From a virus (taxonomy: Duplodnaviria; Heunggongvirae; Uroviricota; Caudoviricetes): a stretch of 64,000 nucleotides of DNA. Positions 57,809 to 64,000 of this stretch are shown one piece after another. Under the pieces are notes generated by a model. The model was not told where the DNA came from. It was given only the letters and a program-made list of their open reading frames with translations, and made no database searches. The stretch's first letter is position 1, and the number at the start of each line of letters is the position of its first letter. The translations under genes were made by a program, and so were the position numbers. Location of the stretch: IMG/VR virus record IMGVR_UViG_3300044712_000568, positions 102,155 to 166,154 of that record; one strand, 5' to 3'.

Positions 57809-58386
57809 TGACTTTATATAGTAAGCTTTTTACATTTTCATTGCGCGAAGAGGCGGAAAAGCCTGCTTCAGAACAGCCACAAATGCCAGCTGCACCAGCA
57901 GGTCCAGAACCAGATGCTGATGGTCTTATCTCTCCATATACTCTACCAAGAAAAGATATTACAGCATTAGCTATTGATGAATTAGAATCCCAAAGTAGAA
58001 TGCTAGGATTTAATATTTCTACTGTATATGCAAAATGCGCTCCAAGTATTGACTTAGTTAAGCGTATTGACACAGCGGGATATACTGAATTCAAAAGTCG
58101 TATTATCGATACCATGGATCTTAATAATATTTTATCAGATAATGAAACAATTAAAGATCATTTGGCTGATATTTTTACATGGGCTTATGCCAAATGCGAG
58201 GGCCCCGATCTATTTTTAGTATATTCAAATAAAAAAACCGTAGAACAAACAGCAAGAGCTATCTTTAGTGTTTCTACCAAAGCTGGATTAAGAATTCCAG
58301 CTGGAAAAATAAAAGATTTATTGATCAACGTATTAGAAAAAGTATTACAAAAGCCAGAAAAGAGCAGTTCAAATGGATCTGACTAA
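57808..58386 (+). CDS. Hypothetical protein
   Basis: 192 aa, TAATG-coupled. Confidence 0.6.
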   Translation: MTLYSKLFTFSLREEAEKPASEQPQMPAAPAGPEPDADGLISPYTLPRKDITALAIDELESQSRMLGFNISTVYAKCAPSIDLVKRIDTAGYTEFKSRIIDTMDLNNILSDNETIKDHLADIFTWAYAKCEGPDLFLVYSNKKTVEQTARAIFSVSTKAGLRIPAGKIKDLLINVLEKVLQKPEKSSSNGSD

Positions 58387-59029
58387 ACTTATATCATTAC
58401 TTCCGTCCAAATATTATAAATATGTTGCTGGAACTATTGCTTTATGTATCTTATTACCCTTAGGATATTATAGTGTTCAGGGATATTTTGCTAAACGAAT
58501 ATTAGACCGTCAAACTGAACAAATTAAGGTGCTGACTAATGAAATTAGTACGCTTAAGGGAGAAAAAGCAGTCAAAGCGAAAGAAGCTGAAAAAGCTGTT
58601 GACGCGTTTTACAATCAAAAAGATCGTGCCGATAAAGCCGAAGCAAAACTAGCTCAGTTAAAACCAGTAGTACTGCCTTCTGTAAACGGCTCTTCTGACT
58701 CCACAACAACCAATGTTTCAGTTACTCCAGATTGTATGGAACAAATTAAATTAGTTCAAGAACAGTATGTAGCACGAGAAGAAGTATTTCAAGAAGTCAT
58801 AACAGAACAAAAAACAACTATAACGAATGCTACTGCAGCGATTGAAAAACTACAAGATGAAGTTATTACAGACAATAAAATTATTGCTAAATTTGATGAA
58901 AAAGATAAAGTAAAAGATGCCCAATTAGCTGCTTCTGAAAAACGAGCAAATAGTGAAGAATCGAAAAAGAAAATATATAGAACTACTACTGGAGTATTGG
59001 GTGTAATAGTTTTAATCTTAGTATTATAA
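58373..59029 (+). CDS. Membrane-anchored coiled-coil protein, spanin/holin-like candidate
   Basis: N-terminal and C-terminal hydrophobic segments flank a coiled coil; directly upstream of the endolysin. Confidence 0.5.
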   Translation: MDLTKLISLLPSKYYKYVAGTIALCILLPLGYYSVQGYFAKRILDRQTEQIKVLTNEISTLKGEKAVKAKEAEKAVDAFYNQKDRADKAEAKLAQLKPVVLPSVNGSSDSTTTNVSVTPDCMEQIKLVQEQYVAREEVFQEVITEQKTTITNATAAIEKLQDEVITDNKIIAKFDEKDKVKDAQLAASEKRANSEESKKKIYRTTTGVLGVIVLILVL

Positions 59030-59047
59030 AAATAATAGATTTAAAAT

Positions 59048-59077
59048 AGCCTCCTAATTAAGTTTAGGAGGCTTTTT
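59048..59077 (+). promoter_or_regulatory. Terminator-like hairpin sequestering the endolysin Shine-Dalgarno
   Basis: AGCCTCCTAA-TTAAGT-TTAGGAGGCT followed by TTTT; AGGAGG at 59066-59071 lies in the 3' arm, ATG at 59079. Confidence 0.85.
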
Positions 59078-59078
59078 C

Positions 59079-59741
59079 ATGGCGGATTTTAAGTTAGCAA
59101 TAGAAAAAACATTAGCCTATGAAGGTGGTTATACTAATAATATCAATGATCCAGGTGGCGCAACTAATTGGGGAATTACATTAGGTGTACTTCAAGAACA
59201 AGGTACTATTGGAGATTACGATCATGACGGCGATGTAGATAAAACTGATGTGCAAATCATGTCTAGAGAAGCCGCAGAAGAAATTTATAAACGTCTTTAT
59301 TGGAATGGTGATAATATTCAATCACAAGCTATAGCAGAAAAGAATTTCGATATGGGTGTTAACATGGGAACTGCAGTTGCTGCTAAATTATTACAGCAAG
59401 CTCTTGTAGCCTGTGGATTTTCTGTAATTGCCGATGGAAAATTGGGACCAAAAACAGTTAATGCTATTAATGCTTCCCCAGAATCCGGCCTTATGACAGC
59501 TTTATGCAATCTACAAGAAACTCGTTATTGGGATATTGTACAACACGATTTGGAAAAAAATGCCGCCGCTAGAAATTGGCCCGAATCTTTAGCGTATGAT
59601 GCTATTACTGCATGTAAAGCAAAAAATTTACCTATTGCTTTATCTTGTTTGCAAAGAGCCAGACAACTAAGACTAAGAGAAGGTAAGTTAGTTTTTCTTA
59701 ATGGCTGGCTAAAACGTGGTGGAGATAGATTTGGGGTATAA
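59079..59741 (+). CDS. Endolysin, glycoside hydrolase family 108 with PG-binding_3-type C-terminus
   Basis: YEGGYTNNINDPGGATNWGIT; FDMGVNMG; FLNGWLKR. Confidence 0.92.
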   Translation: MADFKLAIEKTLAYEGGYTNNINDPGGATNWGITLGVLQEQGTIGDYDHDGDVDKTDVQIMSREAAEEIYKRLYWNGDNIQSQAIAEKNFDMGVNMGTAVAAKLLQQALVACGFSVIADGKLGPKTVNAINASPESGLMTALCNLQETRYWDIVQHDLEKNAAARNWPESLAYDAITACKAKNLPIALSCLQRARQLRLREGKLVFLNGWLKRGGDRFGV

Positions 59742-60249: not shown

Positions 60250-60335
60250 GTCAAAATATGCCGATACTAAATTGACAGAAAAGTGCATTTTTGGCAGGTG
60301 GCCATTTTGCAATTAAATGTACGGGAGAAGAAATA

Positions 60336-62927
60336 ATGAGTCGTGAAGTACAGGATTTAGTTGCTAAGTTCTTAGAGGATAAGCAACTTACGAAAGAATC
60401 AGCAACTCCGCAGCAATTGTCTGATGCGCAAGCTTTTGAAAGTTGCTATAACTGGTATAGAACTAAGATGAATGTTCTACCAGAAAATGCAGAACTCGCT
60501 GCTAAGGTATGGTTACAAAAATATGCTTTACATGATAAGTCTGGAATGTGTCTAGAAAAGACTCCAGAAGATATGTGGGATAGAGTAGCAAATTCACTTA
60601 CAGATGAAGAGATTCTTACTAATCCTACTGCGTTAAATAGAGATGAAGTATTTGCAGAATTTCGTTCTATTCTTGACGGATTTAAATATACTCCTCAAGG
60701 ATCTGGATTATTCGCATTAGGTAATCCATATGTGAAATCTTCTGCATCAAATTGTTTTGTATTGCCTTCTCCAGAAGATAGTTTAGATAGTATTTTTGAG
60801 ACCGCTAAACTAATGGCAAAGATTTATGCCTTTCGTGGTGGAATCGGAATTGACATTTCAAATCTACGGCCTTACGGTGCTTCCACAAATAACGCCGCAC
60901 GAAGCTCCACGGGTGCTGCAAGCTTCATGGATTTCTATTCCTATGTAACTGGCATGATCGGACAGCAAGGCCGTAGAGGCGCTCTTATGCTCACCATGCG
61001 AGTGGATCACCCTGACATTTTTCGCTTTATTGAAATGAAGCGTGACTTGGATAAGCAGCCCTTTTTCGATGAGCTAGCAGAGGCTGGTATTAACATCAAC
61101 GATTACAAACATTCTGCAATTGCAGATCGGTTGAAGTCTGCATCACATTCTAATGTCTCTGTTCGTTTGACCAAGGCTTTTATGGAAGCTGTGAAAAATG
61201 ATACTGAGTTTGAACTTTATTTTGATTATGACCCAGCTTCTGGAAAACCTCGTCATTCTGAATTTGTAAAAGCTAAGTCTATTTGGGACAAATTAATGCA
61301 CTCTGCATGGGAATCAGCAGAGCCTGGAATTCTTAATTGGGATCATATTCTTGAAGAAAGTCCAGCGGATCAGTATCTTAATTTAACGGATATTGATTAT
61401 ACAGATCCCGCCACTGGGGAAAAGAAAACTGTATCTTATTCTTTCCGAACTCTTTCTACAAATCCCTGTGGAGAGGTTCCACTTTCAGGAGGAGATTCTT
61501 GCTGCTTAGGAACCTTCTTTTTGCCAGCTTTCGTAAAGAATCCTTGGACAAAAGATGCTTATTTTGACTTTGCAATGTATGAACAGCATATCAAAGTAGG
61601 AGTTAAAGCGCAAGATAACATTAAGAATTGGGATTCTAGAATTCTTCCATTAGAAATTAATAGAATTTCTGCCATTCTTGGTCGGCGTATTTCTTTAGGA
61701 AATCATGGCTTAGCTGATTGTTTGGCTAGTCTTGGACTTAAATATGATTCAGAGGAAGCAAGACTTCAGACCGATAAAATTTATGAGTGTTTAAAAAATA
61801 CTGCATATGAACAGTCTTCCGATCTCGCTGAGTTGAAGGGTACCTTCCAAGTATTTGACTACGAAAAGCATAGCAAATCTCCTTTCTTCAAGCGTTTACG
61901 AGATTCTGTAAAAAAGAAGATTAAGAAAAATGGTTTACGTAATATTGCCCTGTTAACAAATGCTCCTACTGGATCTATGTCAGTTCTTTCTCGTAATTGT
62001 TCTTCTGGAATTGAACCAGTCTTTATGAAGTCTTATAATAGAAATGTAAAAGTTCCAGGAACTAACGATTTTGAAACTTTTGTTGTTTATCATCAAGCAT
62101 TAGAAGATTGCTTACAAGCTGGCGGAAATACTGACGTATTTATTGAAGCTGGAAATATTGACCCAGAAAAGCGAGTAGAACTTCAGGCCACTATTCAGAA
62201 GCATATTGACCATGCTATCAGTGTTACTACTAATCTAAAATCTGATGCTACTGTAGAGACAGTAGAACTTCTATATAAAACAGCGTTTGAGAAGGGCTGT
62301 AAGGGATTTACTATTTACCGAGATGGTAGTAGAACTGGTGTTCTTAACGCAATTAAGAGCCCCGAAAAGACTCACAAAGTCATGGAACGCCCTAAAACTA
62401 CTAGTATTGATATTCATAAGGTTAAATATCGTGACAAGCAGTGGGCGGTTCTCGTTGGTAGAGTTGATAATGGTCCGATTGAAGTATTTGCTGGTATTGA
62501 GGAAGATACGCCTCTACCAAATAAATATCATCGTGCAGAATTGACTAAGAAATCAAGAGGGCATTACTCTCTGACTGTGTATCTTTCTGAGGATGAAGAT
62601 GATGTAATCAAGATCAATAATATTGGCGCAAGATTCCCACTTCCTGAAGGAATGACTCTTACTCGTTTTATCTCATTGGCCTTAAAGAATGGAGTTCCTG
62701 TTTCAGCTATTTGTGAACAGCTTACAAAATCTTCTAGCTCAATGTTTGATTATCCTGCCGTATTAAATCGAGTGTTAAAGAGTTATATTACTGCTGAAGA
62801 ATATAGCGCAAATGTTGGGGATAAACCTTGTCCCGAATGTGGTAAGTCATTAAAATTTAGAAAGCAAGATGGCTGTATGGTAGAATACTGCGAAAGTTGT
62901 AGCTACTTAAACAGTAAATGCGGTTAA
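60336..62927 (+). CDS. nrdJ: Class II (adenosylcobalamin-dependent) ribonucleotide reductase
   Basis: Likely start MSREV at 60336 (GGGAG SD). SNCFV, LRPYG, TNPCGEV, NAPTGS, C-terminal extra domain and CPEC...CESC...C. No small subunit adjacent. Confidence 0.9.
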   Translation: MSREVQDLVAKFLEDKQLTKESATPQQLSDAQAFESCYNWYRTKMNVLPENAELAAKVWLQKYALHDKSGMCLEKTPEDMWDRVANSLTDEEILTNPTALNRDEVFAEFRSILDGFKYTPQGSGLFALGNPYVKSSASNCFVLPSPEDSLDSIFETAKLMAKIYAFRGGIGIDISNLRPYGASTNNAARSSTGAASFMDFYSYVTGMIGQQGRRGALMLTMRVDHPDIFRFIEMKRDLDKQPFFDELAEAGININDYKHSAIADRLKSASHSNVSVRLTKAFMEAVKNDTEFELYFDYDPASGKPRHSEFVKAKSIWDKLMHSAWESAEPGILNWDHILEESPADQYLNLTDIDYTDPATGEKKTVSYSFRTLSTNPCGEVPLSGGDSCCLGTFFLPAFVKNPWTKDAYFDFAMYEQHIKVGVKAQDNIKNWDSRILPLEINRISAILGRRISLGNHGLADCLASLGLKYDSEEARLQTDKIYECLKNTAYEQSSDLAELKGTFQVFDYEKHSKSPFFKRLRDSVKKKIKKNGLRNIALLTNAPTGSMSVLSRNCSSGIEPVFMKSYNRNVKVPGTNDFETFVVYHQALEDCLQAGGNTDVFIEAGNIDPEKRVELQATIQKHIDHAISVTTNLKSDATVETVELLYKTAFEKGCKGFTIYRDGSRTGVLNAIKSPEKTHKVMERPKTTSIDIHKVKYRDKQWAVLVGRVDNGPIEVFAGIEEDTPLPNKYHRAELTKKSRGHYSLTVYLSEDEDDVIKINNIGARFPLPEGMTLTRFISLALKNGVPVSAICEQLTKSSSSMFDYPAVLNRVLKSYITAEEYSANVGDKPCPECGKSLKFRKQDGCMVEYCESCSYLNSKCG

Positions 62928-62935
62928 GGAGCATT

Positions 62936-63322
62936 ATGAATAAAATTGAACCTGGAAGTATTGTAATATTAAAAACTGGCGGTCCAAGAATGACTGTTAT
63001 AAATGTAAATAGAAAAGGAAAGTGCTCATGTGCTTTCTTTGTTGGAGATGGTTTACATCGAATTAAGCTTCCTATGGATAGTTTAGAGAACGTAACAGAA
63101 ATATCTTATGATGAAGCAACAGTTTTACCAGAAAAGAAACCATTTGATGAAATTATTCAACATAGAGATGACTCTGATGCTACTAATTTAGTAGATGATT
63201 CTACTATGGTTGTATTAACTAAGTATATTAAAGAAGATCAGCCGATGGTTCTAGCAAGAATTGACAATGAAATTATCTTTTCTGCTGCCATAGAGGAAGC
63301 AGATACTGTGAAAGAGGTGTAA
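62936..63322 (+). CDS. DUF2158/YodC-like protein
   Basis: Start MNKIEPG (AAGGAG SD); GSIVILKTGGPRMTV motif. Confidence 0.7.
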   Translation: MNKIEPGSIVILKTGGPRMTVINVNRKGKCSCAFFVGDGLHRIKLPMDSLENVTEISYDEATVLPEKKPFDEIIQHRDDSDATNLVDDSTMVVLTKYIKEDQPMVLARIDNEIIFSAAIEEADTVKEV

Positions 63323-63323
63323 T

Positions 63324-63740
63324 ATGAGTAGACGCAGATTGACTCATTATTGACTATTTAATATTACAGAATGTAAATATATAGAAATATTAAATATTCC
63401 GTTATATTTATCCGCTAAACAAGTACAGAACTTCCTGTCTCTTTTATCCACTCCCAATTGGTGGAAGCTAAGAGGCAGGGAGTCTCTTTATTTATGGTCA
63501 CCGCCAGTTAGTAATTTTAAGAATCCTCGTATAGTTACACTAGACCAATGCGGATTGGAAGAACGCGTATATGAACCATTAGAATTTGTTATAGAGCAAG
63601 TTTATAACGCATATCCAAAATTTCCACTTAAATGGTGGTATAACGAAACAAAAGCTTGGTTATTAGAGGGAAGTAAGCATAAATCATTAATAAAAACCAA
63701 TATAAAACCAATAAAACAGAAAAAGGTGCAACATGGGTAA
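63324..63740 (+). CDS. Hypothetical protein with in-frame TGA at codon 10 (paralogue A)
   Basis: AGAGGTG SD plus ATG 63324; a single TGA at 63351-63353, then open to TAA 63740. The track ORF 63555-63740 is only its 3' part. Confidence 0.7.
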
Positions 63741-64000
63741 AAGATTAACTCACTATTGAATTTATATTATTACAGAAGGAATGATGTTTAATTATAAGGG
63801 AGAACCCTTATATTTTACAAAATCGCAAGCTAATAAAATACTGCATTCTCTAATTAATGATGAATGGTGGACATACAATTGGCAGGGTAAAGAGACACCC
63901 GCTTTACCGCACCGTAAATTTCAATTAGAAGAATTTTTTATTGAACAAGTACATAATGTAGCAGGAAAAGTAGTTAAAAAGTACTCTACTAAATATTTAC
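63733..64000 (+). CDS. Hypothetical protein with in-frame TGA at codon 9 (paralogue B, partial)
   Basis: AAGGTG SD plus ATG 63733; TGA at 63757-63759, then open to the window end; aligns with paralogue A. Confidence 0.7.

Follow-up and report, generated by a model that had tools for sequence, protein, structure and literature searches.

An in-frame UGA close to the start of a small protein family of jumbo phages is conserved and probably read through

The window analysed here is a stretch of 64,000 nt, bases 102155 to 166154 of a single 230,154-bp virus record in IMG/VR (IMGVR_UViG_3300044712_000568), and it ends in two tandem genes, here called A and B, which belong to a small protein family of soil and rhizosphere jumbo phages and which carry an in-frame TGA a few codons after their start. 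The TGA is conserved, the codons on both of its flanks are under protein-type selection, gene A has no usable alternative start, and the phage has no genome-wide recoding. From these sequence comparisons we consider it probable that the UGA is a gene-specific, selectively maintained stop that is read through, most likely by tRNA-Trp, and that it serves as a strong down-gate on expression.

Both genes read as the initial annotation of the window had described them, with a Shine-Dalgarno (SD) sequence, an ATG, codons for RLTHY and the TGA, after which each continues in the same frame:

63314 to 63319, plus strand: SD sequence of gene A, GAGGTG, 4 nt before the ATG (direct reading)
63324 to 63350, plus strand: first nine codons of gene A, MSRRRLTHY, with the ATG at 63324
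63351 to 63353, plus strand: in-frame TGA of gene A, next base C; the same in contigs X3 and X4
63354 to 63740, plus strand: gene A frame after the TGA, 128 open codons and TAA (63738-63740), with the family motifs ITE, PLY, WW and EFVIEQV
63723 to 63728, plus strand: SD sequence of gene B, AAGGTG, 4 nt before the ATG (direct reading)
63733 to 63756, plus strand: first eight codons of gene B, MGKRLTHY, with the ATG at 63733
63757 to 63759, plus strand: in-frame TGA of gene B, next base A; the same in X3 and in two variant X4 contigs
63760 to 64000, plus strand: gene B after the TGA, IYIITEGMMFNYKGEPLYFTK onward, continuing beyond the window end
L001 2301 to 2325: terminator after gene B

The first in-frame ATG, GTG or TTG after the TGA of gene A is the TTG at 63555 (codon +68), which leaves 67 codons without a canonical start and agrees with the earlier remark that no downstream ATG rescues this gene; its 128-codon open frame was reached in only 2 of 100,000 shuffles. 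The ATG of gene B overlaps the 3' end of gene A (CATGGGTAA), and 133 codons follow its TGA before a TAG at window-equivalent positions 64159-64161 (L001 2314-2316). The two proteins are only 26–32% identical, and the synonymous differences reported upstream of their TGAs (TTG/TTA and CAT/CAC) are present. Gene callers shrink A to a 61-aa fragment and strip B and its relatives of their N-terminal motif, the most conserved of the family. Assembly error as the source of the TGAs is ruled out by independent contigs: the TGA of A is covered by contigs from two other studies (X3, X4) and that of B by three contigs (X3 and two X4 variants approximately 88–90% identical), with identical bases and no TGG in any of them, a check that rests on assembled contigs and not on raw reads. 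Of seven listed differences between gene A and a variant strain, four are at third positions and synonymous by hand reading.

Relatives were collected by protein searches and then by reading the DNA of the contigs behind the matches, and two groups resulted. In the first, the TGA is kept in the same register at six loci, namely A, B, L002, L003 (identical at L004-L006), L043 and L044, at all of which 15 codons separate it from a conserved P[LIV][YL]. Outside the window, the N-termini in this group read as follows:

L002: MSRRLTHY, stop, IYIITENIMFNYKGDPLYFTK
L003 (identical at L004-L006): the same as L002 (MSRRLTHY, stop, IYIITENIMFNYKGDPLYFTK), with four synonymous differences
L043: MGRRLTHY, stop, LLIMSEGYYFSYNGKPILFTK
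L044: MRLSHY, stop, ITIITEGICLSFKGTPLLFTK

The loci that keep the TGA are 32–66% identical to B at the protein level, and the six represent at least five diverged lineages. SD-like purine runs of varied strength (GGAGA, AGAGGA, AAGAGA, GAGTGA) precede the homologous ATG at the TGA loci other than A and B, and at L047 a GGAGG stands before the likely TTG start. In the second group are five homologues (P0010-P0014) whose codon at the TGA position is CAA (Gln) or AAA (Lys) and whose open reading frame (ORF) is unbroken from the homologous start, with the consensus M[RH]Nxx[RQ]Y[KQ][LI]YI[IL]TEGICLNYKGxP[IL]LF. Since these homologues run uninterrupted from the homologous start, the ATG before the TGA is the true start of the family. 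Reading the residue at the TGA position in homologues, the check that had been proposed at the outset, gave Lys or Gln in the sense clade and never Cys. The ten loci whose DNA was read can be aligned gap-free, codon by codon, over a stretch that begins five codons ahead of the site and reaches codon +18; the Tyr directly before the site is invariant in 11 of 11 proteins, and of the family's six invariant columns four fall in the first 33 residues. In the tree, a single branch (100/99 support) parts the TGA loci from the sense loci and long branches lie within the TGA group, from which it follows that the TGA is old and has long been kept.

All homologues occupy the same neighbourhood, after the reductase gene or a DUF2158-type gene where the contig reaches that far and mostly before an AAA_33 block, and gene A itself is absent from the relatives, having been lost. 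At L002 (1388-1436), the 96-nt spacer before the single family gene opens with ATGAGCCGACGAAGA (MSRRR...), similar to the first codons of gene A (ATGAGTAGACGCAGA), and ends in a TGA that overlaps the next ATG (ATGA). To judge from this likeness, the spacer may be what is left of a lost A-type copy, in which case the duplication into A and B would be older than the split of these phages. Further relatives were sought in viral_contigs with a protein profile and two DNA patterns, which returned nothing or one chance match, and in metagenome_contigs, where the profile gave none and the DNA pattern gave 36 matches, all chance-like on reading; a phage DNA collection held no match.

Selection acts on the encoded protein on both sides of the TGA. 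Among the 12 flanking codons, variable sites at positions 1, 2 and 3 number 7, 3 and 11 (Fisher p = 0.003, position 3 against position 2). Over the five codons that precede the stop, the proportion of nonsynonymous differences (pN) within the TGA clade is 0–0.17 against 0.6–1.3 for synonymous differences (pS), and between the clades pN rises to 0.63–0.68, so that RL[TS]HY is specific to the TGA clade and fixed in it. The region after the TGA is likewise under purifying selection, pN being far below pS: codons +1 to +7 give a pN of 0.09–0.12 and a pS of 0.5–0.6 when the TGA clade (B, L044) is compared with the sense clade. Codon use in the TGA clade includes AGA, CGT and AGG for Arg and TTG, TTA and CTT for Leu; the Thr at +5 is encoded by ACA, ACC and ACT, and Ser TCA occurs at one locus. 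None of the three TGA bases varies, in contrast to 11 of 12 neighbouring third positions, and TGG, a single step away, is found in no lineage, which argues that the stop itself is selected. With six loci keeping the TGA, five outgroups having a sense codon in its place and both flanks protein-like, the suggestion of a gene-specific, selectively maintained in-frame UGA that has to be decoded gains a good deal more support than two paralogues alone could give it.

It is conceivable instead that the genes of this clade are decaying and have inherited the TGA as a null mutation, perhaps tolerated because the protein is dispensable, with any spontaneous leakage irrelevant. Gene A would fit this description in that it evolves fast, has a C-terminus that models poorly and has been lost entirely by relatives. 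Decay is, however, hard to square with a TGA retained across lineages of such low identity to B (32–66%), with the lack of any stop or frameshift beyond the TGA at all six loci, with a pN far below pS on both flanks and motifs common to the TGA and sense clades, or with a one-step reversion to TGG that is never seen, and we regard it as very improbable. A DNA-level explanation also fails: a promoter or repeated DNA element was rejected, as the 5' stretch occurs at only two sites in the genome, a sigma-70 scan did not rise above shuffles, and the codons for Arg, Leu and Thr show the variation expected of a peptide.

A more serious competitor is reinitiation. The first 6–9 codons would then be a leader mini-ORF at whose UGA translation terminates, to restart downstream and yield an N-terminally truncated protein, with the leader setting the rate of restart. 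Bacteria and phages are well known to restart translation near a stop, the mini-ORF comes with an SD sequence of its own and encodes a peptide under selection, and there is an in-frame ATG at +8 or +9 in B, L002 and L003 and at +4 in L043, which gene callers use. The starts chosen by the callers are, however, non-homologous (ATG at +4 in L043 and at +8 or +9 in B, L002 and L003; TTG at +10 in L044), so that the position of the supposed restart is not conserved; gene A offers no canonical start for 67 codons, and the TTG called in L044 encodes the conserved Leu of EGICL. Codons +1 to +7 precede every canonical in-frame start in A, B, L002, L003 and L044, and they encode IYIITEG, which directly follows the TGA and is the most conserved stretch of the family; these codons between stop and restart are under protein-type selection and are translated in the uninterrupted homologues. 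The SD-like GAAGG of B and L044 that might serve a restart is the conserved Glu-Gly codon pair, found in the sense clade as well. The predicted fold bears on the same question. An AlphaFold2 model of B, built from the small family alignment, has a predicted local distance difference test score (pLDDT) of 82.3 and a predicted template modelling score (pTM) of 0.77, and its first beta strand comprises residues 6-12, with the TGA position at residue 9; in the model of A the N-terminal half is confident, with a strand at 8-13 that spans the TGA position, and the last 42 residues are poor. As the TGA position lies inside the predicted first beta strand, a product made from a downstream start would lack that strand. 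We therefore think reinitiation unlikely, while giving it real weight. A minigene effect of the lambda bar type, with drop-off of peptidyl-tRNA from very short ORFs, was also considered; it would not explain coding conservation after the stop.

The in-frame UGA is peculiar to this family. Over the whole 230-kb genome TGA terminates 60 of 320 long ORFs, code 11 gives a coding density of 90%, and no tRNA with a UCA anticodon was found, which together rule out reassignment of TGA, genome-wide or in late genes; the initial annotation had rightly argued against a genome-wide reassignment. A genome scan for further frames that a TGA interrupts after a short upstream ORF gave only A and B as convincing cases, and no further copy of the RLTHY-stop motif is present in the genome. 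Tandem back-up stops, which would be a sign of general UGA leakiness, are not enriched after ordinary TGA stops. ARAGORN predicts 30–36 phage tRNAs, including a tRNA-Trp(CCA), and no UCA anticodon even with introns allowed, and no release-factor gene was found in the phage genome; neither the opal suppressor tRNA nor the release factor raised at the outset is thus found in the phage.

Dedicated decoding of the UGA, whether as selenocysteine (Sec) by means of a host SelB and a Sec insertion sequence (SECIS) or by an opal suppressor tRNA of the host or one unrecognised in the phage, is very unlikely in our judgement. In its favour, Sec is encoded by UGA, conservation of the site is deep, and the host could supply a suppressor. 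Homologues nevertheless have Lys or Gln at the site and never Cys, the UGA is followed by no conserved hairpin and no Rfam match, the predicted phage tRNAs lack a UCA anticodon, and an efficient suppressor would read the 60 ordinary TGA stops too. The Sec insertion that had been offered among the mechanisms is for these reasons improbable.

The RNA after the stop shows no conserved structure. RNAalifold gave a consensus of -0.18 kcal/mol after the UGA with no stem near it, single folds were no better than shuffles (z-scores -0.3 to -1.7), and the TGA region had no match in Rfam. The 11-bp AT stem that had been noted in gene A (63355-63365/63386-63396) does exist as an inverted repeat, but it is neither stable nor conserved: it takes no part in the minimum-energy fold (z -0.54), and neither B nor any homologue has it. 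The base after the TGA is A or C at all six loci, a context once thought distinctive; TGA-A is also the commonest at ordinary TGA stops (31 of 60), so context alone explains nothing.

A short translational hop over the stop is a further rival. Peptidyl-tRNA-Tyr would leave the UAY codon before the UGA and re-pair with a UAY downstream of it, and B, L002 and L003 do have the arrangement UAY-UGA-AUN-UAY with matching codons (TAT/TAT in B and L002, TAC/TAC in L003). Such an event would be akin to the stop-hopping described in Escherichia coli and, at a larger scale, to the bypass in T4 gene 60, whose signal includes a long nascent peptide. In A, L043 and L044, however, codon +2 is for Phe, Leu or Thr and no matching in-frame Tyr codon is nearby; the take-off site has no conserved stem-loop, and the nascent peptide, at 6–9 residues, is far shorter than the gene 60 signal. 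A hop is, in our view, highly improbable.

The favoured reading remains that of readthrough by an ordinary tRNA. Near-cognate decoding of stops by tRNA-Trp is an established mechanism (PMC7026636), and an A9C variant of E. coli tRNA-Trp is cited as enabling UGA readthrough (PMC13092985). The phage tRNA-Trp(CCA), which lies outside the window (G000:C1:23486-23559), has C9 with a U12-A23 pair, the configuration of that variant. C9 occurs in 3 of 30 phage tRNAs (tRNA-Trp, tRNA-Tyr and tRNA-Glu), so that its presence in tRNA-Trp may mean nothing and is taken as a lead only. A tRNA-Trp of the Hirsh type (position 24) or with a 4-bp anticodon stem was rejected, the phage tRNA-Trp having G11-C24 and a 5-bp stem; C9 is its one notable feature. 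Other tRNA genes of the phage are unusual. One tRNA-like gene outside the window (G000:C1:6045-6117) has a 6-nt anticodon loop, given by ARAGORN as 'ga', another (G000:C1:7750-7838) has either a 4-base anticodon 'ctaa' or is a tRNA-Val with a 12-nt intron, and an intron-containing tRNA-Lys stands at 215181-215297 of the phage record.

According to the readthrough model, ribosomes would start at the conserved SD-ATG and make M-x-(R/K)-R-L-(T/S)-H-Y; release factor 2 (RF2) would release most of them at the UGA, and a minority would insert a residue there and go on to the full-length protein of approximately 140 aa, with the near-cognate tRNA-Trp(CCA) as the likeliest decoder. The stop would be a built-in strong attenuator near the start of the gene, and output should then follow the balance of RF2 to Trp-tRNA. 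The likeliest 5' recoding signal would be the RL(T/S)HY peptide with its CAY-UAY codons, which is found in the TGA clade only and is nearly invariant there. A peptide of B spanning the stop would read LTHY-x-IYIITEGMMFNYK, or LTHY-W-IYIITEGMMFNYK if Trp is inserted. A bolder version of the model, to which we would give only a small chance, is that RL(T/S)HY with CAY-UAY-UGA is a new compact 5' recoding signal, a sensor-gate on the RF2 to Trp-tRNA balance whose timing may be set by the C9 tRNA-Trp of the phage; were it true, this one UGA would leak and the other 60 UGA stops of the phage would terminate as usual.

Several considerations weigh against readthrough. We infer the readthrough itself, its efficiency, the inserted residue and its regulatory purpose from comparison of sequences. 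There is no conserved RNA structure after the UGA, and the +4 base, besides being undistinctive, is largely dictated by the next codon (Ile/Leu). B, L002, L003 and L043 have an in-frame ATG 4–9 codons after the TGA, from which internal initiation or reinitiation could give a truncated product. The sample is small, six TGA loci with L002 and L003 close relatives, and, register being conserved by inheritance, the loci do not count as independent observations. Gene A, whose branch is very long (3.9 changes per column) and whose 42 C-terminal residues model poorly, may be under relaxed constraint.

The source record has a G+C content of 36.6% and an estimated completeness of 93%, and DNA near-identical to this phage is present in rhizosphere and soil metagenomes of several studies. 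Genes A and B close a plus-strand operon that runs from a class II ribonucleotide reductase (60291-62927) through a DUF2158 small protein (62936-63322) to A and then B, with a strong terminator just past the window end; beyond the terminator lies a convergent minus-strand block whose first gene is AAA_33 kinase-like. The gene directly upstream of A is:

62936 to 63322, plus strand: DUF2158-type small-protein gene (Pfam PF09926, E 2.2e-6)

Its TAA stop ends 1 nt before the ATG of gene A. The order of class II ribonucleotide reductase, DUF2158 gene and A/B family member is found also in L002, L003 and L005. In L002 (1385-1390) and L003 (2208-2213) the upstream DUF2158 gene ends in tandem stops, TGA followed by in-frame TAG/TAA, and the window copy ends in a single TAA. 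The ribonucleotide reductase of the relative L048 (1759-5562) has 1267 aa, with an intein and a LAGLIDADG endonuclease domain; the window copy has 878 aa and is without an intein. Flagellin (Flagellin_N/C), FlaG and FliD-like genes lie in relatives between the AAA_33 block and Mre11/Rad50-like genes, and flagellin has no match in the window's own genome. The region was located at:

L044:5194-6705: flagellin/FlaG/FliD-like region
L048:8931-10638: flagellin/FlaG/FliD-like region
L049:3167-4874: flagellin/FlaG/FliD-like region

Also in the window, at 58373-59741, is an endolysin made up of a GH108 domain and PG_binding_3 (Pfam E 2.7e-20), preceded by a 218-aa protein whose sequence looks, by eye, hydrophobic at its two ends and charged over a long central part. 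This arrangement is typical of phages of Gram-negative hosts.

The function of the A/B family was sought by several routes. The family has no match in Pfam or PHROG; Foldseek against PDB and AFDB returned nothing at E below 0.1; the best VIA structural match, Tic22 at Z 3.0, is no fold match; and an ESM Atlas feature search gave no usable match. Outside the window (G000:C1:184110-197025) is an expanded family of HIPTG/KEEFxII small proteins whose N-termini (MVYRIYHIPTG) resemble by eye the Y-stop-IYIITEG of A and B, and for which Tic22 is likewise the weak best structural match. Alike by eye as YRIYHIPTG and Y-stop-IYIITEG are, comparison of the two profiles is not significant (hhalign probability 1.3%), and kinship between the families is not claimed.

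Very few genes of bacteria and phages are documented to use programmed readthrough, its classical use is to put a C-terminal extension on a minority of proteins, and its mechanism has been called 'remarkably unclear' (PMC7026636). If our reading is true, a stop kept for long 6–9 codons into a gene would be an expression gate and not a device for two isoforms, and it would be signalled by a few residues of upstream peptide, not by an RNA structure downstream. The region, of approximately 60 nt and with natural controls in the form of sense-codon homologues and two paralogues in one genome, would be convenient for studying the leakiness of a single UGA. A practical point is that gene callers truncate or miss the genes of this family.

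Among known systems, the Lak and crAss-like recoding phages resemble this one in being large, in having many tRNA genes and in the in-frame stop within a real gene, but they recode many, mostly late, genes with a matching suppressor tRNA, whereas here a single family is concerned. Bacterial selenoprotein genes such as fdhF share a conserved in-frame UGA within the coding region of a standard-code genome; a gene of that kind (UGA with SECIS) was rejected on the Lys and Gln of the homologues in place of Cys and on the lack of a conserved downstream hairpin. With T4 gene 60 and the stop-hops the family has in common a stop right after a possible take-off codon and, at three loci, a matching downstream codon, and it differs in that the landing codon is not conserved in the A/B clade and that there is neither a conserved stem-loop nor a long nascent-peptide signal. 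The RF2 gene prfB is comparable in its early and deeply conserved UGA, in a synthesis that depends on poor RF2 termination and in an upstream sequence that is part of the signal. Yet prfB depends on a +1 frameshift at CUU UGA C together with an internal SD sequence, a mechanism rejected here, where the downstream ORF is in frame 0 at six of six loci, a slippery codon is lacking and the gene does not encode a release factor. The likeness to the coat/A1 gene of Q-beta (Allolevivirus) lies in a phage in-frame UGA that would have to be decoded by a normal tRNA at low efficiency, with no dedicated suppressor. In Q-beta a Tyr codon precedes the readthrough UGA and an A follows it, and the A/B family also has a Tyr codon before the stop and, at most loci, an A after it. 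The genome is that of a double-stranded DNA jumbo phage, not of a single-stranded RNA phage, and the stop of Q-beta ends a complete and abundant protein, to a minority of which readthrough adds a C-terminal domain; in the A/B family it stands 6–9 codons in, within the predicted first beta strand, so that termination would leave no more than a short peptide and readthrough would be the sole route to the protein.

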